This document shows, in pieces, positions 131 to 49,317 of a stretch of DNA of 64,000 bases. Both the position numbers and the translations under genes were made by a program. Every line of letters begins with the position of its first letter. Within the stretch, counting starts at the first letter, position 1. The notes below the pieces were generated by a model, which saw nothing but the letters and a program-made list of their open reading frames with translations, searched no databases and had not been told where the DNA came from. This DNA comes from an uncultured Alphaproteobacteria bacterium (lineage in GTDB: Bacteria > Pseudomonadota > Alphaproteobacteria > Methylaequorales > Methylaequoraceae): contig CABZAL010000005.1 in assembly GCA_902523675.1 (NCBI GenBank), positions 6,867 to 70,866 of the forward strand, given 5' to 3'.

Positions 131-370
131 GTCCGTGCAGAAGTCGTGCAGAAAAAACACTCATTTGCAACGCACTTTGCAACGCACTTTTTAAGAAACC
201 CCTAGAAACAGAGGGTCTTAGACCAAACACCGAGACACAGAAGTCTCATCGGCAAGGGCGGACAATTGTTCGCCCTTGTTTGTTTTAGGTATACTCACAA
301 AGGGTTTCAGAGGGGTCACTCACCAGAAAAAAAGGGAAAATGAAACGAGTTAAGTACAACGCACTTTTGC
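131..370 (+). repeat. att-like composite repeat, copy R1
   Basis: Left tandem CGTGCAGA x2, CAACGCACTTT at 168, 180 and 357, 37-bp core tagaccaWacaccgagacacagaagtctcatcggcaa at 219-255, hairpin CAAGGGCG...CGCCCTTG; homologous to R2-R4. Confidence 0.9.
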
Positions 371-435
371 TTTTTCATTTTCATGAGAGTGATATCCAAG
401 AAATTTGGAAAACTAAGAAGATGTAAATTATACAA

Positions 436-1209
436 TTAGTACAAAAAAGTATAACCACTAAAAATATTAAAATCGTCCCCCTTACCTAATAGTCTATGAT
501 TTAAACCTATGTCAAATATAAGATTTTTACTTTGCGAGTAAGTTGCACCAAATCCAATTATGTTTGATACCTTGTAATCCACATCATTACTTTTGATAGC
601 AATAATTTCTGAATAAAGACCCAATGAATTTTGCATATTTATTCCTAATAGACCTGAAATAATAAATTCAATATCAAAATTTTGTTCATCATCATCATAC
701 ACATAATCTGTTTCAAACATGAAATCTAAATTTAGTGTATCAAAAATATTAGTAGAAAATGGAAAAATAATTCCTCCTTCTACTTTGTTATTGCCTATCT
801 CATTGTCAGCAGTAGGTAATTTTATGTAAGGCATTAATCCAAATGCAGATTTCCCGTCGTCATTTACCCAAATATTCTTTTTAATACTAATTTGAAAATC
901 TCCATTACCGTCATTTGTTTTTTTGTTAGACTCTTGATTAATATATGGTTCAAAAACTAACTGTAGATCTATTGAATTATTCAAACCAATTCTAAAATTA
1001 AATGGATGTATGAACCAAGTATTCACGTCACTATTTTGAGAATAGTCAAAAATATTGCTTTCTACCTGTTTTACTCCAGCATCTATAGTAAATCCACTTT
1101 CGGTGAAAGTCGTGGCATAAACTTTTTTATAATCAATAAGAAAATTTATAAAAATTAAAATTAAGAAAGAAAATTTTGTAATTAGAAAGTTTTGTTTTTT
1201 TGTTAACAT
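436..1209 (-). CDS. Outer-membrane 'transporter' beta-barrel, Phenol_MetA_deg (PF13557)-like
   Basis: N-terminal signal-like segment; TESGFTIDAG..QVE and FGLMPYIKLPTA..GN..VEGG motifs typical of this family; aromatic C-terminus GYTFLY. Confidence 0.65.
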   Translation of the reverse strand: MLTKKQNFLITKFSFLILIFINFLIDYKKVYATTFTESGFTIDAGVKQVESNIFDYSQNSDVNTWFIHPFNFRIGLNNSIDLQLVFEPYINQESNKKTNDGNGDFQISIKKNIWVNDDGKSAFGLMPYIKLPTADNEIGNNKVEGGIIFPFSTNIFDTLNLDFMFETDYVYDDDEQNFDIEFIISGLLGINMQNSLGLYSEIIAIKSNDVDYKVSNIIGFGATYSQSKNLIFDIGLNHRLLGKGDDFNIFSGYTFLY

Positions 1210-1538
1210 TTAATTAATAGATTGATTTTTATTGAAATTAGGTAGAAATTAATTTTGTTACTTAAATAAAAGAATTTAAGTTTTATTCTAGATTATATTT
1301 TTGAATGTTTTTACCCAGCAAGATCATAAAAAAATAGATCCGACTGTTTTAGATAAATAAAATTATTTGGGATATGTTCAATTTAAAAATAAATTACAAA
1401 TTACACAAATAATGCAAACTTGATCATATTACACAGACTTTTTCTCTTCTTATTTTTTCAATATCTATATAAATCTTCATAGAATCGGTTCAAACATTGT
1501 AAATTATTATATTTTGCTTGAACCAATCATAATTCATA

Positions 1539-1712
1539 TTATTCTTTTTTTTCCTCAGTTGATTCTTCTTTTTTATCTTCAGAAGTCTCTTCGTTTGTTT
1601 CTTCAGTTGTTTCTTCCACAACTTCTTTTTTTTCGCCGTGCCCGTCTGCTTTTACGGATTCTGAGGAAAATAAGAATGCTAAGGAAAAAAATAAAATGTA
1701 CAAATATTTCAT
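1539..1712 (-). CDS. Small secreted acidic peptide (57 aa), predicted mature N-terminus DGH
   Basis: GGAG at 1719-1722 lies 6 nt before ATG 1712 (the ORF-track TTG start overlaps the SD); signal peptide MKYLYILFFSLAFLFSSESVKA then an E/K/T-rich tail. Confidence 0.7.
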   Translation of the reverse strand: MKYLYILFFSLAFLFSSESVKADGHGEKKEVVEETTEETNEETSEDKKEESTEEKKE

Positions 1713-1836
1713 ATATATCTCCAAAAAAGTTACTATATATAACCTAACAAATATTAAATATTTTTAAAAATTTATATTCTTTATATCTGCTATAATTCCA
1801 AATTATAATGACTATACTTACTACGATAAAAAGTAA

Positions 1837-2063
1837 TCCGTGCAGAAGTCGTGCAGAAAAAAAACTGATTTGCGCTCCACTTTTTAAAAAAACCCCAGTT
1901 ATTTAGGGTTATAGACCATACACCGAGACACAGAAGTCTCATCGGCAATGTTCACCCTTGTTTGTTTTAGGTAGACTCACAAAGGAATTCAGAGGATTCA
2001 CTCAACAGAAAAAGATAAAATGAAATGGGTTTAAGTGCAGACATGCGCAGACCCTGTGCGGAC
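1837..2063 (+). repeat. att-like composite repeat, copy R2
   Basis: tccgtgcagaagtcgtgcag left end, core at 1912-1948, short deletion in the second hairpin, right-end triplet gtgcagac/gcgcagac/gtgcggac at 2035, 2045, 2056. Confidence 0.9.
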
Positions 2064-2175
2064 ACTTATGAGTGTTCATCATTTGTTTTTCTAGATTGTT
2101 AGAATGGTTTAAAGTATTGTAAGTTTTTTTTTAAGTTGCTTGATCAATGACTTGAAAATTTATTAAAATTTATTT

Positions 2176-2715
2176 ATGAAAAAATTATACTTCAAATTTT
2201 TTAAAATATATTTTTAATTTCAATCATATTTTTTGGTTGTGTAAAAGCAAATTCATCTGAGGGTATTAATGATATCAAAAATTTATTAGAAGGAAGGTAT
2301 GAACTGATTTATTGGACAGAAAATAACATCCAATATTATTACCCAGAAGTAGCAGGAATATTTATCTTAAATAATAATAATGCTTTAATTAGCTTGGATA
2401 AAAATATGGATACAAATTAAGTCTGTCGAATTAATAGGATGGGGGAAATATACAATTAAAAATGAATCATTTCATATCAGATGGCATGATTGGAAGTTAT
2501 TATTGATTGAAAATAATATTAAAACAGTGAAAAAAAAATCTCCTTGGGAAGGCATGAAAGAATATAATGTTTCTTTTAATGATAATAAATTAGTTTTAAC
2601 TTCAATAACTGGTAAACAATCTTGAAACATAAGCAAAAATTCTATAGTTTATAGAGATAAAGAATGGGGATAAGATAAAAACGAAGTTGTAAGATATTGG
2701 AAAAGAGTAGATTAA
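2176..2715 (+). pseudogene. Decayed gene for a secreted, possibly lipocalin-like beta protein
   Basis: Manual translation gives a signal peptide, then LLEGRYELIYW...LIGWGKYTI...SPWEGMKEYNV...VVRYWKRVD*, interrupted by two frameshifts and two in-frame stops (TGA, TAA). Confidence 0.65.
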
Positions 2716-2985
2716 AAAAGATTCATTTGCCATCACACATGGTTCTTGTAATTTTTTCAATATAAATAATAGTTATTTTTCATCGATTTATTAGACTGAT
2801 TTGAGAGAATGTTAGGAAGTCTGAGCAGTTCCTAAAAATCACTTTCAAAAATGTATGTTTTCTAGGATTTTATTTTCAAAAAAATGGTAGTCTAAATCTA
2901 AAGTTTTAGACTGAATGTTAGTTTTTATAAAACAACTAAATACTGGTAAAATATTTATATCAACCCTAGTATAATAAAGTAATAA

Positions 2986-3417
2986 ATGTCATTAAAAAGT
3001 GTTTTAAAAAAGATTCCAGACTTCAAAGGTGCAAATTTTCTTATAAGAGTCCCTCTTGCTATTGTATTTATTTTGCAGGGATTATCAAAGTTACCACTTA
3101 ATATTTCTGATGCAGAATCTTACGGTTTGCCAATGACTGTCTGGTTTTTTGTTGCGTGGGGAGAACTTCTTTCAGGGATTGGGTTGCTAATTGGTGGATT
3201 ATTAGTAACAAAAAAACTTAATAGTTATGGTGGATTAATAACAAGGTTCAGCGGTATTGTCATATGTGGTATTATGACGGGCATTATTTTGATGCAAGAA
3301 CCGGAAAGTCTTTTAGATGTATTGTTATACGATAATTTTCATGTAATGCTTTATTGTGGAGGATTGTTCTTTGCACTTAGAGGGAATAGAGTCTATTTAG
3401 AGGATAATAAAGAATAA
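2986..3417 (+). CDS. DoxX family membrane protein
   Basis: LIRVPLAIVFILQGLSK, WGELLSGIGLLIG and TRFSG motifs; four hydrophobic segments. Confidence 0.75.
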   Translation: MSLKSVLKKIPDFKGANFLIRVPLAIVFILQGLSKLPLNISDAESYGLPMTVWFFVAWGELLSGIGLLIGGLLVTKKLNSYGGLITRFSGIVICGIMTGIILMQEPESLLDVLLYDNFHVMLYCGGLFFALRGNRVYLEDNKE

Positions 3418-3518
3418 TCAAAAAACAAAAAATAATTAAAACTCATATTTTAGTTTTCTCAATTTAAAAGTTTTTACATTTATGGTACTATAATATTATT
3501 AATGAACAGGAGTAGTAA

Positions 3519-3668
3519 GTGACTAAAAAAAATAATATTGAAGAAACCTGTTGCAAATATACTTGTTGTGCAGATGGTTGTTGCAGTGAGGGTTGTAAAA
3601 CAGGAGAGTGTAGTACTGGTTGTTGCAAGGAAGGATGTTGTATTGATTCAGAAAACTGCTGTTCGTAG
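3519..3668 (+). CDS. Cys-rich metallothionein-like peptide 1 (49 aa, 14 Cys)
   Basis: AGGAG 6 nt before GTG; translation MTKKNNIEETCCKYTCCADGCCSEGCKTGECSTGCCKEGCCIDSENCCS; paralog at 4994-5122; absent from ORF track because of size. Confidence 0.8.
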   Translation: MTKKNNIEETCCKYTCCADGCCSEGCKTGECSTGCCKEGCCIDSENCCS

Positions 3669-3733
3669 AAATAAAATTTTATTTAACCTTTTATAATGAA
3701 AAGCGTTAAGTTGTATTTGATACATTGTTATTG

Positions 3734-4138
3734 TTAATAACAAAAACCAGTTCTTGAAAAATTGCAAGAAGTCATCCCTGGGAAATAGTAACTATGCGAA
3801 TAATAATGATAGTTTGAAAAATCAATATTTCTTCTTACTTCAAACTTTGATTCTTCATAATCTATTAAATTATAATATCTAAACATCGCCTCATTATCTG
3901 AAATTTCATTGTTTTTTACCATAATTTGAAGTCTTTTTATAGCATCTACAAATCTAGTATTTTCATTCCGACAATTTATATTATCGTTACAGTCCTTTTG
4001 AATCTTATTAAATGCACACGAAGAAAGATTAGTAAATTCACTAAATTTTTTTTCACAATCAACAAAATAACTGTAAGAATATTTGTTTGAGGCACAAGAA
4101 GTAATAATAAACAAACTAAAAATAAAAAAGTATTTCAT
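3734..4138 (-). CDS. Hypothetical lipoprotein
   Basis: Lipobox-like ITSC after a hydrophobic stretch; several Cys in the mature part. Confidence 0.65.
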   Translation of the reverse strand: MKYFFIFSLFIITSCASNKYSYSYFVDCEKKFSEFTNLSSCAFNKIQKDCNDNINCRNENTRFVDAIKRLQIMVKNNEISDNEAMFRYYNLIDYEESKFEVRRNIDFSNYHYYSHSYYFPGMTSCNFSRTGFCY

Positions 4139-4207
4139 ATAGGTTAATTTAATAATAATTTTTTAAATTTCAGTAAATATTTAATAATTCAACCAAACAG
4201 AAAAGTA

Positions 4208-4390
4208 GTCCGTGCAGAAGTCGTGCATAAAAAACACTAATTTGCGACCCATTTTGCCACTCACTATTTACGAAACCCCCAGTTACAAAGGGGTCTAGAC
4301 CATACACCGAGACACAGAAGTCTCATCGGCAAAGGCGGGCTGTTGGCTCTTGTGAGATTTAAAGACATTCGCAAAGGGGTTTCAAAAGCA
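4208..4390 (+). repeat. att-like composite repeat, copy R3
   Basis: gtccgtgcagaagtcgtgca left end, core at 4296-4332 identical to R2; right half homologous but diverged. Confidence 0.9.
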
Positions 4391-4495
4391 TGTTTTTTTA
4401 AAAACAAAAGTATTTGAAAATAATATGATTTAACTGGGATTCATCCTTGTTAATTTTTATATTGAAATTTAATTCATATTTATTAATTAAACCTT

Positions 4496-4741
4496 ATGAA
4501 ATTTTTTACATTCTATTTTCTTTTTTTTATTCTGGCTTTTATTTTGAATCTTATTCATCCAGATCGACAAGGAAAGATCTTATCATCAACTTTAAATGAA
4601 GTAATGTATTCTGGTTTTTTAAAGTCGCAAAGCGAATTATCTGCCACAGAAAAGACTACCCTTTCTTGTAAGTTCAAAAGTATGAATAGAAAATCCCCAA
4701 AATCTAAGTTGGAAGATAAAATCAGCAAAAGAAAAATTTAG
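4496..4741 (+). CDS. Hypothetical protein with hydrophobic N-terminus
   Basis: ORF track; only ORF between R3 and R4, ending just before R4; no recognisable motif. Confidence 0.35.
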   Translation: MKFFTFYFLFFILAFILNLIHPDRQGKILSSTLNEVMYSGFLKSQSELSATEKTTLSCKFKSMNRKSPKSKLEDKISKRKI

Positions 4742-4752
4742 TAACAGTGATA

Positions 4753-4890
4753 CACTATTTATAAAAGCCTATGAAATAAAAGTTCGTAGAACCTATATTG
4801 TGGCACAGTAATCTCGTCAGCACGGGCGACCAAATTGTTGACCTTTATTTGTTTTAGGTTAACTAAAGGAGTGTTTCAGAGAATTCAACT
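4753..4890 (+). repeat. att-like composite repeat, degenerate copy R4
   Basis: cactattt...tagaacctatattgtggcacagtaatctcgtcagcacgggcgacc...tttgttttaggt...gtttcagag aligns by eye with the core and right half of R1-R3; left tandem arm not recognisable. Confidence 0.7.
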
Positions 4891-4993
4891 TGAAATTAAT
4901 AAAAGAATTAAGGAAAGATTAAGTAACTTCATACAAAAGAATTTCCAATTGGTACATGCAACAATTATGGTAAACCAAATTTAGGAGTTTATA

Positions 4994-5122
4994 ATGATTA
5001 ATATTAAAAATAATTGTTGTAAACATACTTGCTGCGAAGACGGTTGTTGCGAAACAGGCAAGTGTAGTAAAACGAGTTGCAAGGATGGATGTTGTGCAGA
5101 TGCTGAGAACTGTTGTGAATAG
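4994..5122 (+). CDS. Cys-rich metallothionein-like peptide 2 (42 aa, 12 Cys)
   Basis: AGGAG upstream of ATG; translation MINIKNNCCKHTCCEDGCCETGKCSKTSCKDGCCADAENCCE; clear homolog of 3519-3668. Confidence 0.8.
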   Translation: MINIKNNCCKHTCCEDGCCETGKCSKTSCKDGCCADAENCCE

Positions 5123-5256
5123 ATAAAAGCTCGTCTTTAACCTATCGTAATCAATAATTTGATTGTGCATTCATTGTTATTTAATTCACATTATAACTTT
5201 TGTGGTCTTAATTTAGTAAACCTAAGGTGATCGCTATATATGATTCCAAATTCGTG

Positions 5257-5538
5257 TTAAATATTAAACCATGAGAAAATAAAATTTCCAGTGACCATGA
5301 GTGTACCAAAAAATACAAAACAATAGAACGTCCCAAATAAAAAAATGTAAGTTCCTGAAATTAAAAAACGAAAGAAAGAGGACATAGAACTTCCAAGTAA
5401 TTCAAGTCTAAGACTCATAATAAATGGGTTTAGTTTGTGTTTTGTTTTTTTATTCAACCAGTACACAGGATATGTAAATATCCAAAATATAGGAAGGAAT
5501 AATAATATATATAGTAGTGTAATTCCTAGTAGATCCAT
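5257..5538 (-). CDS. Small hypothetical membrane protein
   Basis: ORF track; ATG start, two hydrophobic segments. Confidence 0.5.
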   Translation of the reverse strand: MDLLGITLLYILLFLPIFWIFTYPVYWLNKKTKHKLNPFIMSLRLELLGSSMSSFFRFLISGTYIFLFGTFYCFVFFGTLMVTGNFIFSWFNI

Positions 5539-6263: not shown

Positions 6264-6776
6264 TTACTTGTTTTTAGATATTAAAGTATCCATGTAAGCC
6301 AAAATCACACCACTAATTACAAAAGTAAAATGTATGGCTATGAATAAGATGATCTGTTCTTTCGTGTATTTATCTAAATCGAAAAATACTTTTAAAAGAT
6401 GAATCCCAGATATAGCCACAATTGAGGATACTAATTTAAGTTTTAATCCCTTAAAATCAACTGTTCCCATCCATTCTGGTTTATCCTCGTGGTTATTAAC
6501 ATCGATTTTAGAGACAAAATTTTCATAACCTGAAAATATTACAATTATCAACAAATTACCGGCAAATGATAAATCTATGAGAGTCAGTATAAATAAAATT
6601 AACTCTGTTTCATCAGTACTAAAGTTTAAAACGAAATGAAATATTTCTTTTATAAAAACTACTAATAAAAAAAATAAAGAAATTATTAAGCCAAAATAAA
6701 ATGGTGCAAGTATCCATCTTGACGCAAACATGACTCTTTCAAGAAATTTTTCAAAACTTTTAAGCATATCTTGCAA
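6264..6776 (-). CDS. YqhA/UPF0114 (TIGR00645) family membrane protein
   Basis: FASRWILAPFYFGL, LTLIDLSFAGNLLIIVIFSGYENFVSKID, PEWMGTVDF..LKLKLVSSIVAIS.IHLLK motifs. Confidence 0.85.
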   Translation of the reverse strand: MQDMLKSFEKFLERVMFASRWILAPFYFGLIISLFFLLVVFIKEIFHFVLNFSTDETELILFILTLIDLSFAGNLLIIVIFSGYENFVSKIDVNNHEDKPEWMGTVDFKGLKLKLVSSIVAISGIHLLKVFFDLDKYTKEQIILFIAIHFTFVISGVILAYMDTLISKNK

Positions 6777-7020: not shown

Positions 7021-7422
7021 CTATGAAACTTCTACATTTTCAATCTGAAATTCTAATTCTTTGAACCCATTCGGAAACTCTTTTTCACTGATCGACATGA
7101 AACCCTCATCATAAAATTTTTGTTGTTGAATTGGTATAAAATTTTCTAACTCTACCATTATTTCATTATCTTGTTGAAACCAAGAAATAAAACAATCTTT
7201 AGCCGATTCAATATCATGAACAACGAGTTTTTTTTTTTGTATATTACAAAAATATTGACTGCCCTCTTCCATAAAATATAAATCAGATTTTTTGATATAG
7301 CTTGGGCATTCACCGCATTGACAATTTTCGACTAATTCTGAATAATGGAATTTTTCCGCTTTAATGAATAGTGAAAAATATATTTTGTAAGTTTTCATTA
7401 ATTTAATTCTACTACAAGGCAT
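7021..7422 (-). CDS. Hypothetical protein with CQCGECP motif
   Basis: ORF track; overlaps or closely follows the stop of the transporter, probably co-transcribed; start may be the later MKTY. Confidence 0.55.
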   Translation of the reverse strand: MPCSRIKLMKTYKIYFSLFIKAEKFHYSELVENCQCGECPSYIKKSDLYFMEEGSQYFCNIQKKKLVVHDIESAKDCFISWFQQDNEIMVELENFIPIQQQKFYDEGFMSISEKEFPNGFKELEFQIENVEVS

Positions 7423-16650: not shown

Positions 16651-16997
16651 ACTAGATGATTGGATGGCTGCCTTTTTAAGGAGGAAAGTCCGGACTCCAC
16701 GGAGTTACAATGCCGGTTAACGGCCGGCGAGGGAAACTTTAGGGAAAGTGCCGCAGAAAATAAACCGCCTTTTGGGTAAGGGTGAAAAGGTGAGGTAAGA
16801 GCTCACCGCATTAATGGTAACATTAATGGCATGGTAAACCCCATTGGGAGCAAGTCTAAAAAAGCACGTTCATTAGATTGAAAAGCGATAACTCCTCGTG
16901 TGCATGGTAAGACGCTAGAAGTAGTTGGTAACAATTACTCAAGATGAATAGCCATTACTTTTTTAAAGAACAGAATCCGGCTTATAGATCATCTAGT
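16651..16997 (+). ncRNA. rnpB: RNase P RNA, class A
   Basis: GAGGAAAGTCCGGACTCC, GGAAAGTGCCGCAGAAA, GGTAAACCCC, ACAGAATCCGGCTTA; terminal P1 pairing actagatgat/atcatctagt. Confidence 0.97.
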
Positions 16998-17030
16998 TTT
17001 TTTTTTTTTTTTTGTAGATAATTGGAAAAA

Positions 17031-49240: not shown

Positions 49241-49317
49241 TGGTAGGCCCGGAGGGACTTGAACCCCCGACAACACCGTTATGAGCGGTGCGTTCTAACC
49301 AACTGAACTACGGGCCT
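49241..49317 (-). tRNA. tRNA with CAT anticodon, most likely tRNA-Ile2 (lysidine-modified)
   Basis: AGGCCCG/CGGGCCT acceptor stem, caccg-CTCATAA-cggtg anticodon arm, GGTTCAAGTCC T-loop, encoded CCA; lacks the initiator C1:A72 mismatch and GGG/CCC stem. Confidence 0.9.

Follow-up and report, generated by a model that had tools for sequence, protein, structure and literature searches.

A cassette array at the 3' end of ssrA

We analyzed a stretch of 64,000 nucleotides (contig C5:6867-70866, hereafter the window) from genome G000, an uncultured alphaproteobacterium of the order TMED127. A tandem array of small gene cassettes was found at its left end, next to ssrA, the gene for transfer-messenger RNA (tmRNA). 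We consider it likely that this array is an additive island anchored at ssrA, which was built from serially inserted cassettes that each brought an attP site, with a tyrosine integrase acting in trans.

Four co-oriented homologous elements (R1-R4) were identified in the window by repeat finding, alignment, and whole-genome blastn. A sequence-only model of the unit was built from the copies found and used to place further copies, and R1-R4 matched it with E-values from 1e-35 to 1e-60. R1, R2, and R3 share the 37-bp block TAGACCAWACACCGAGACACAGAAGTCTCATCGGCAA, in which one base varies. The distances from core to core were 1693, 2384, and approximately 491 bp. Open reading frames (ORFs) occur on both strands between the repeats, and no recombinase was detected among them in the ORF list or by Pfam. 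The first-pass annotation had described four such elements in one orientation, a 37-bp core with one variable base, and modules of about 1.7, 2.4, and 0.5 kb with genes in either direction and no recombinase between them. All of this was confirmed. It had also suspected that the array continued past the left edge of the window and that a parent attB gene lay there. One more cassette and a half-unit (R0) were indeed found, and the parent gene was identified with Rfam as the permuted ssrA. When the repeat was searched against the rest of the 1.1-Mb assembly by blastn, copies were found on contig C5 only, all adjoining ssrA, with none on the other contigs. Since the copies of G000 occupy a single locus, a dispersed repeat of the miniature inverted-repeat transposable element or repetitive extragenic palindromic type, which the annotation had named as a finding that would speak against its reading, was ruled out. 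The gene and the units are located as follows.

C5:5366-5658, left of the window: ssrA, permuted alphaproteobacterial tmRNA gene (Rfam alpha_tmRNA, 184 bits, E = 1.8e-52)
C5:5634-5787, about 1.2 kb left of the window: R0, partial fifth copy with the core and right half only (blastn and unit model)
129-371, + strand: att unit R1, composed of P arm, core, ssrA 3' end with terminator, and P' arm (model 199 bits, E = 5.6e-60)
136-160: two GTGCAGA arm repeats of R1
165-188: tandem motif TTTGCAACGCAC, present twice in R1
199-214 and 1891-1910, - strand: terminator-like P-arm hairpin (GC hairpin and T-run)
232-236, 237-242, and 243-247, + strand: core of R1 with GAGAC, spacer ACAGAA, and GTCTC, read from the sequence
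237-246, + strand: putative crossover region ACAGAAGTCT of R1, from the comparison of shared cassettes
251-290, + strand: copy of the ssrA intrinsic terminator within R1 (13-pair hairpin and T-run)
1834-2068, + strand: att unit R2 (model match 1834-2042, 177 bits)
1925-1940, + strand: core of R2, GAGAC-ACAGAA-GTCTC
2036-2062: GTGCAGAC-type repeats in the P' arm of R2
4206-4392, + strand: att unit R3 (model match 4206-4439, 150 bits; the real similarity stops near 4392)
4309-4324, + strand: core of R3
4725-4924, + strand: R4, degenerate AT-rich terminal att unit (model 117 bits, GC 0.31)

The unit core was positioned in the final ~15 nt of the alpha_tmRNA model match, and it is exactly at ACAGAAG that ssrA and the internal units become identical. 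Because the Rfam match covers R0, this half-unit is the 3' end of ssrA with its intrinsic terminator. After the terminator it continues into the same right arm as R1 and R2. Direct repeats of the ssrA 3' end are held by R1-R3 as ACAGAAGTCTCATCGGCAA. The terminator is whole in R1 and R3, partly deleted in R2, and R4 is degenerate. Compared with the terminator behind ssrA in R0, the copy in R1 has a single base changed (G/A in the loop). In R2, the 5' stem has lost 12 nt (CGGCAA--TGTTCACCC; window 1940-1960), so read-through from cassette 2 into cassette 3 may occur.

The layout of the array was B-O-P' at R0, P-O-P' at R1, R2, and R3, and then a decayed terminal site at R4. This is the layout expected from serial integration into the 3' end of a tRNA or tmRNA gene (tDNA). 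As in tDNA islands, an intact tmRNA gene stands at one end of the array and its 3' end is supplied by the units. The P' arm of R3 is truncated or diverged. In R4, the core-like sequence ACAGTAATCTCGTCAGCAC at 4805-4823 showed 5 changes in 19 positions. R4 is probably inactive and marks the distal limit of the variable array, and from R4 onward G000 was collinear with genome G001 (92.7% over 6 kb). AT-rich terminal copies like R4 were seen in G001, G002, and G011, and AT-rich partial copies in G010, G018, and G022.

ARAGORN, unlike Rfam, reported no tmRNA at C5:5366-5658. This program can overlook permuted tmRNA genes of the TMED127 lineage.

Structure of the att unit

A consensus of the unit, approximately 230 bp long, was derived from 32 distinct full-length copies. 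The P arm begins with CCGTGCAGAAGTCGTGCAGAA, which holds two GTGCAGA repeats at a spacing of 11 bp. It is followed by a variable 12-mer in tandem, represented in R1 by the motif listed above, and by a short GC hairpin that resembles a terminator for the minus strand. In the core consensus, ACACC-GAGAC-ACAGAA-GTCTC-ATCGG, the 6-bp spacer is enclosed by a perfect inverted repeat of 5 bp. To the right of the core lie the ssrA terminator and the conserved right arm ACTCACAAAGGGTTTCAGAGG, and the distal end of P' carries a motif similar to the variable 12-mer. The P and P' arms have no function in ssrA. They were conserved across 11 genera, phased repeats included, and both were intact in most units.

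Heterobivalent tyrosine integrases bind core-type and arm-type sites, and our reading of the unit as attP draws on this established knowledge. By analogy, the architecture would be that of a lambda/P4-type attP, with core-type sites around an overlap region, flanked left and right by arm-type direct repeats. The GTGCAGA and TTTGCAAYRCAC repeats are candidate arm sites, that is, candidate protein-binding repeats. Since terminators face both ways, the unit probably insulates neighboring cassettes transcriptionally. The stem changes between copies of the hairpin looked compensatory, and Rfam scans at the gathering threshold and by E-value gave no family match for the repeats.

Putative crossover site and pairing of arm motifs

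Breakpoints were determined by aligning full-length units to one profile and comparing pairs that had common cargo on one side only. The cleanest pairs were the most informative. For units with the same left cargo (G020 and G013), there was 1 mismatch in columns 1-118, and a run of mismatches started from column 119. For units with the same right cargo, one from a metagenome contig and one from a single-cell genome, all 40 mismatches fell in columns 2-98, and columns 99-231 were identical. Sequence specific to tmRNA extended to column 108 at the ssrA junction, which placed the lower bound at column 109. Because both types of cargo pair and the ssrA junction limit it, the crossover was bracketed to columns 109-118, ACAGAAGTCT. 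These 10 bp comprise the 6-bp spacer and the first bases of the right core site. Cassette 2 of the window and its counterpart in G001 showed the same breakpoint pattern. This comparison suggested that the crossover lies inside the identity block between GAGAC and GTCTC. Breakpoints in a 10-bp core flanked by inverted repeats would fit a tyrosine recombinase, as expected for this class.

The arm motifs were compared by the mean longest common word. For the P' motif of unit i, this value was 8.95 with the P arm of unit i+1, at the opposite end of the same cassette, 6.80 with the P arm of its own junction, and 6.78 with random partners. The pairing of P'(i) with P(i+1) gave Mann-Whitney p = 2e-5 against random partners and p = 7e-4 against same-junction arms, for pairs that are not phylogenetically independent. 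Such pairing would fit the derivation of each cassette from one circle with its own attP, and it hints at several integrase specificities.

Exchange of cassettes within the order

The order TMED127 consists of one family, from which 42 species genomes were compared. The unit model matched 35 of them. The left-arm 17-mer was present in 19 and was confined to one strand per genome, except in the fragmented assembly of G008. Where ssrA could be placed, most unit matches lay on the ssrA contig, and a few were on separate contigs (fragmented G008, G009, and G023); all copies that could be placed adjoined ssrA and had its orientation. The exact 18-mer spanning the P arm and core was searched in 185,579 species genomes and was found only in TMED127, apart from a few chance matches. 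Public contigs with the unit came from single-cell genomes and from metagenome-assembled ones, AG-892-F10 and MED715 among them. These two have been assigned to TMED127, proposed as 'Methylaequorales', a group of streamlined marine methylotrophs with genomes of ~1.5 Mb (bioRxiv 10.1101/2025.06.11.659106). The genome of G000 has a low GC content. This and the synteny of thyX and ssrA would also fit SAR11, but that identity was rejected since the related contigs were from TMED127.

Seventeen arrays gave 37 cassettes of 177-3542 bp (median 988 bp), with 0-6 cassettes per array. The usual content was one or two ORFs per cassette, in either direction; a few cassettes had none or as many as five. 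In G004 and G015, ssrA was followed by the right arm with no further unit in the next 8-17 kb. Cargo in the relatives included complete type II restriction-modification pairs, in which a C5 methylase was combined with a SacI-type or MvaI/BcnI-type endonuclease. A PhoD-like phosphatase, an FkbM methyltransferase, and a formyltransferase-domain protein were also found.

The same cassettes were found at different positions in different genera, overall with 93-99% identity. A 660-bp cassette was present in six genomes of three genera with pairwise identities of 86-99%, at position 1 in G013, G022, and G011, position 2 in G020 and G018, and position 4 in G010. A 1335-bp cassette was 97.7% identical between two genera. 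Flanking core DNA was only ~75% identical between genera, compared with up to 99% for cassettes. Cassette 2 of the window occupied position 3 in the congeneric G001, where it was 89.5% identical over its full length and had other neighbors. The cassettes common to G000 and G001 were permuted in order. Cassette content and order varied among relatives, which were compared as the first-pass annotation had recommended. Further combinations of neighbors were seen on metagenome contigs, and one Tara contig matched the junction of cassette 2, R2, and cassette 3 of G000 at 99.3%.

Cassettes and neighboring genes of the window

The cassettes and the genes up to the first widely conserved gene are located as follows.

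1-236, + strand: right part of cassette 1 (end of the small ORF 2-130 and P arm of R1); the cassette begins at the ssrA core at C5:5644, 1222 bp left of the window
237-1929: cassette 2, 1693 bp core to core
436-1209, - strand: MetA/phenol-degradation-type outer-membrane protein, cassette 2 (PF13557, E = 5.9e-13)
1539-1724, - strand: 61-aa secreted acidic peptide, cassette 2 (ORF)
1930-4313: cassette 3, 2384 bp
2176-2714: disrupted lipoprotein gene, cassette 3, with a remaining 40-aa fragment (ORF 2503-2625)
2986-3417, + strand: DoxX, cassette 3 (PF07681)
3519-3668, + strand: 49-aa Cys-rich peptide, cassette 3 (no Pfam match)
3734-4138, - strand: 134-aa lipoprotein, cassette 3
4314-4804: cassette 4, ~0.5 kb, with one 81-aa ORF at 4496-4741, + strand
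4994-5122, + strand: second Cys-rich peptide, 42 aa, behind R4 (no Pfam match)
5257-5538, - strand: 93-aa membrane protein, behind R4
6264-6776, - strand: UPF0114, the first gene widely conserved across the order (PF03350)

Cassette 3 was a fusion of four modules, each of which is a separate cassette or stretch elsewhere. The modules matched cassette 2 of G011 (90.7%), cassette 3 of G010 (87%), stretches behind the arrays of G010, G018, and G022 (75-83%), and cassette 6 of G001 (82%). The lipoprotein gene that is broken in cassette 3 has an intact 179-aa homologue in cassette 2 of G011, where the stretch is 90.7% identical in nucleotides. Cassette 4 was homologous to cassette 5 of G001 (75%). 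A DoxX-like protein, which may or may not be a cassette copy, is reported among the most highly transcribed genes of the TMED127 single-cell genome AG-892-F10 at the Bermuda Atlantic Time-series Study site (bioRxiv 10.1101/2025.06.11.659106).

The 49-aa and 42-aa Cys-rich peptides are paralogous and rich in CC doublets, and homologous stretches were found behind the arrays of G010, G018, and G022. The region 4994-5538 behind R4 was common to G001. The gene of the 93-aa membrane protein is still an att-flanked cassette in G018 and G022, and the genes at 4994-5538 were probably once cassettes. UPF0114 showed ~75-77% nucleotide identity across genera.

The genes to the left of ssrA look like core genes and, named by eye from the ORF list, are presumably, in this order, degP, hflC, hflK, mrp, and thyX. 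The synteny of thyX and ssrA is also present in SAR11 strain HTCC1062 (PMC2704228). The window further contains RNase P RNA class A (16652-17000, 289 bits) and tRNA-Met(CAT) (49241-49317), both of which are ordinary.

Proposed mechanism

In the proposed additive island, a cassette would be the integrated linear form of a small circle that holds only cargo and a lambda-type attP of ~230 bp. As cargo, each circle would bring 1-4 genes that have promoters of their own and can lie on either strand. Its attP would have a P arm made of two GTGCAGA repeats at a spacing of 11 bp, a tandem 12-mer specific to the cassette, and a hairpin. The right side would supply a replacement copy of the last ssrA bases and the terminator, followed by a P' arm that ends in the same cassette-specific motif. 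A heterobivalent tyrosine integrase, encoded outside the array, would join this attP to the ssrA 3' end or to any resident unit, with strand exchange within ACAGAAGTCT. Every insertion would regenerate ssrA and shift older cassettes distally. Recombination between any two units would delete, excise, or reorder cassettes. The first-pass annotation had proposed serial insertion of small circles by a tyrosine recombinase that acts in trans. The insertion of discrete cassettes with breakpoints in the core was supported, as was the absence of a recombinase in cis across the 42 genomes; the enzyme with its class and its source in trans, the circles, and the vehicle of transfer between cells are parts of the model that we infer.

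A wider interpretation was also considered, which we put forward tentatively and hold to be somewhat less probable than not. An order-wide, integron-like cassette economy with the integrase in trans may operate at ssrA. It would comprise dozens of minimal elements that contain only a split two-armed attP and one or two cargo genes, and that stay mobile through selection on their arm sites. The cassette-specific arm motifs may match integrase variants. Rare or transient donors, such as a satellite-like element, a virus, or vesicle-borne DNA, would insert, excise, and reshuffle the cassettes, and the units would restore ssrA and insulate in both directions.

Search for the recombinase

Several results weigh against the proposed island. 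A search of the 42 genomes with PF00589 gave no match in or beside any array. At 47 metagenome loci with the P-core sequence, no integrase-like ORF was detected by tblastn and a home-made integrase profile, and IMG/VR contained no contig with an att unit. Four resident integrase families of TMED127 (389, ~412, 451, and ~420 aa) were tried as the trans-acting enzyme and rejected, since their loci showed no att unit and no enrichment of GTGCAGA. Among the breakpoints, some pairs broke off the core, for example cassette 3 of G002 and cassette 3 of G013, in which the terminator differs. The signal of an automatic change-point scan was noisy, since hardly any position varies over the 60 bp right of the core. 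In addition to the dependence among the arm-motif pairs, G000's own cassettes matched weakly in their arm motifs (7 and 7). Because some pairs break outside the core, homologous exchange between units also occurs.

The genomes searched contained few recombinases besides the Xer type. In G000, PF00589 matched only an Xer-like gene and a fragment, neither of which lies on the contig of the array. All 47 metagenome loci were further TMED127 arrays or their right flanks. The home-made profile gave no match over all arrays, and no autonomous element with a matching att site was found in the genomes, the metagenome loci, or IMG/VR. A partial tRNA adjoins one of the four integrase families, and a tRNA-Thr or tRNA-Leu gene adjoins two others; no tRNA lies next to the fourth.

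Other candidates were also rejected. A phage-borne attP was not supported, as the 19-nt core was absent in IMG/VR and the matches of 15-mers and 16-mers were due to chance, with none fitting the unit model. Integrases on the small contigs G019:C46 and G024:C29 had no unit at the contig ends. A 244-aa ORF of G000 (C6:51608-52342) resembles the N-terminal part of the 451-aa integrase, which binds arm and core sites, and is without a catalytic domain. It was considered as a conserved arm-binding factor and dismissed, since homologues were present in only 8 of the 42 genomes; two of these matches (G011 and G018) were the N-terminal part of a full-length 451-aa integrase. A XerCD/dif-type site was discounted because the core is unlike dif, as judged by eye. 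The site architecture, with arms, an inverted-repeat core, and a 6-bp spacer, would argue against a serine recombinase, for which no search was made.

Two of the integrase families gave observations of their own. The 389-aa integrase was 92-95% identical across three genera (locus L088 5490-8500, on G010:C11; L089; L090). It adjoins the 3' half of a partial tRNA (L088 ~7310-7365) as well as restriction-modification and helicase genes, and modules in differing order between genomes lie to its right. G000 retains only a broken integrase, closer to the 451-aa family, with shuffled modules at C7:9159-16855. The 389-aa locus may be a second cassette-like variable locus. The ~420-aa divergent integrase (L096-L099, in G003, G024, G022, and G018) showed 36-42% identity between genera and weak PF00589 scores. 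It adjoins tRNA-Leu(gag) in the same tRNA-Leu/tRNA-His context in the four genomes. This integrase looks vertically inherited and may be domesticated.

Alternative explanations

The lack of an integrase near the arrays is also what would be seen if homologous recombination alone moved the cassettes. In this explanation, the units are relics of ancient integrations that serve as portable homology arms. Cassettes would come, go, or change order through RecA-dependent exchange that follows the uptake of DNA, with no site-specific recombinase still at work. An identity of 85-95% over more than 200 bp between units is sufficient for RecA, and the off-core breakpoints are of the kind this explanation predicts. 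However, the breakpoints of the cleanest recent transfers fall within 10 bp at the inverted-repeat core. The explanation also leaves the conservation of the P and P' arms with their phased repeats unaccounted for. Moreover, homologous recombination would favor the inheritance of whole junctions, whereas the arm motifs pair within cassettes. We consider this explanation unlikely. Another possibility is that the array is a fossil, in which the cassettes are decayed islands that were once autonomous, lost their own integrase, and are now immobile. The same route of decay has been published for the origin of cis-mobilizable elements (CIMEs; PMC5704250). In line with a fossil, degeneration and a high AT content mark R4 and the terminal copies elsewhere, and the fusion in cassette 3 has lost its internal att units and contains a broken gene. 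None of the 37 cassettes, however, keeps even a fragment of an integrase. Cassettes that are 97-99% identical between genera at different positions and arms that are intact in most units also disagree with immobility, and we regard a fossil array as improbable.

The repeat could also be primarily an RNA or regulatory module that was duplicated locally, for example a small RNA that arose from the 3' end of tmRNA, or a unit that acts as terminator or insulator. The forward terminator and the reverse-strand terminator-like hairpin in each unit are in line with such a role, as are the compensatory stem changes in the hairpins. The repeats matched no Rfam family, and local duplication cannot yield identical core-bounded cassettes in other genera, so that we give this explanation almost no weight. 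An insulator role does not conflict with the att explanation and complements it.

Comparison with known systems

The first-pass annotation had ranked the array as the strongest candidate for an undescribed system. This was overstated, because tandem ssrA islands, partly without an integration module, and CIMEs have been published (PMC3146451, PMC5704250). In Dehalococcoides, tandem ssrA-specific islands are bounded by a 20-bp ssrA repeat, and 15 of 31 have no integration module and were proposed to be cis-mobilizable (PMC3146451). These islands resemble the TMED127 arrays in that they stand in tandem at ssrA, vary in number between strains, and often lack an integration module (McMurdie et al. 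2011, PMC3146451). Their recombinase is a large serine integrase, DsiB, that about half of the islands encode in cis (PMC3146451). In contrast, the TMED127 unit is ~230 bp long, with arm repeats and an inverted-repeat core of the tyrosine-integrase type, the cassettes have a median of ~1 kb, and no array in the 42 genomes carried an integrase.

CIMEs and their accretion have been described for streptococcal integrative and conjugative elements (ICEs) as well as integrative and mobilizable elements (IMEs) (PMC5704250). Like CIMEs, the TMED127 cassettes are without integration or transfer genes, have units on both sides that keep attL and attR, and are stacked at the 3' end of a target gene. CIMEs are decayed ICEs or IMEs that are mobilized when an autonomous element integrates alongside (PMC5704250). 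For the TMED127 cassettes, no autonomous partner was found, the units are far smaller, the full two-armed attP is kept, and the distribution is order-wide. In descriptive terms the cassettes are CIMEs, minus the adjacent autonomous partner.

In Williams 2002 and in the Islander report (PMC4383910), P4/lambda-type tDNA islands are described with a tDNA 3'-end target, a restored gene end, a displaced fragment that marks the far boundary, and common tandems at ssrA. All of these are shared by the TMED127 array. It differs in that the integrase gene adjacent to att, which defines these islands, is absent. Among streamlined aquatic bacteria, Prochlorococcus has tycheposons that occur in tandem and for which ssrA is one of the tDNA sites (bioRxiv 10.1101/2020.12.28.424599). 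In Methylophilaceae, repeats of tRNA ends recur in additive islands, and islands with partial tRNA repeats are known from SAR11 (PMC10872708, PMC11796062). These systems share with the TMED127 array streamlined genomes nearly without classical mobile elements, modules split by partial tRNA or tmRNA copies near tDNA, and cargo for defense and nutrient uptake. However, tycheposons carry a tyrosine recombinase and replication genes, and the repeats reported for these systems are short partial tRNAs, whereas TMED127 cassettes carry cargo only and their units keep arms of ~100 bp on both sides.

The comparison with integrons, drawn in the first-pass annotation together with the statement that the array is not built from attC sites, held on both counts. 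As in integrons and clusters of attC sites lacking integron integrases (CALINs), promoter-independent cassettes of 0.2-3.5 kb gather at one fixed site and are reshuffled and shared across taxa. Unlike integrons, the TMED127 arrays have no intI, attI, or Pc promoter and no attC hairpins. Their units are asymmetric with direct arm repeats, both orientations occur among the cassettes, terminators insulate them, and the primary site is the tmRNA gene.

The TMED127 array differs from known ssrA islands and CIMEs in degree. Every unit in every genome is integrase-less, the cassettes are as large as those of integrons, a complete two-armed site of ~230 bp is kept at each junction and conserved in 11 genera, and the arm motifs are cassette-specific. 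It is an extreme, minimal, and order-wide form of a known island type and not a separate category.

TMED127 bacteria are abundant, uncultured, genome-streamlined marine methylotrophs (bioRxiv 10.1101/2025.06.11.659106). For the study of how accessory genes are exchanged in such streamlined marine cells, the ssrA locus is a concrete, sequence-defined exchange point. It offers a 10-bp crossover site, arms of ~100 bp, and cassettes common to several genera, with restriction-modification systems, a PhoD-like phosphatase, envelope proteins, and Cys-rich peptides as cargo. The practical gain is modest because integrase-less ssrA islands were already published. The locus provides primers and probes for cassette circles in seawater and a defined substrate for candidate integrases. 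Its main value is as a model of gene exchange that is well defined and can be tested, in a marine lineage that is abundant, streamlined, and nearly free of mobile elements.

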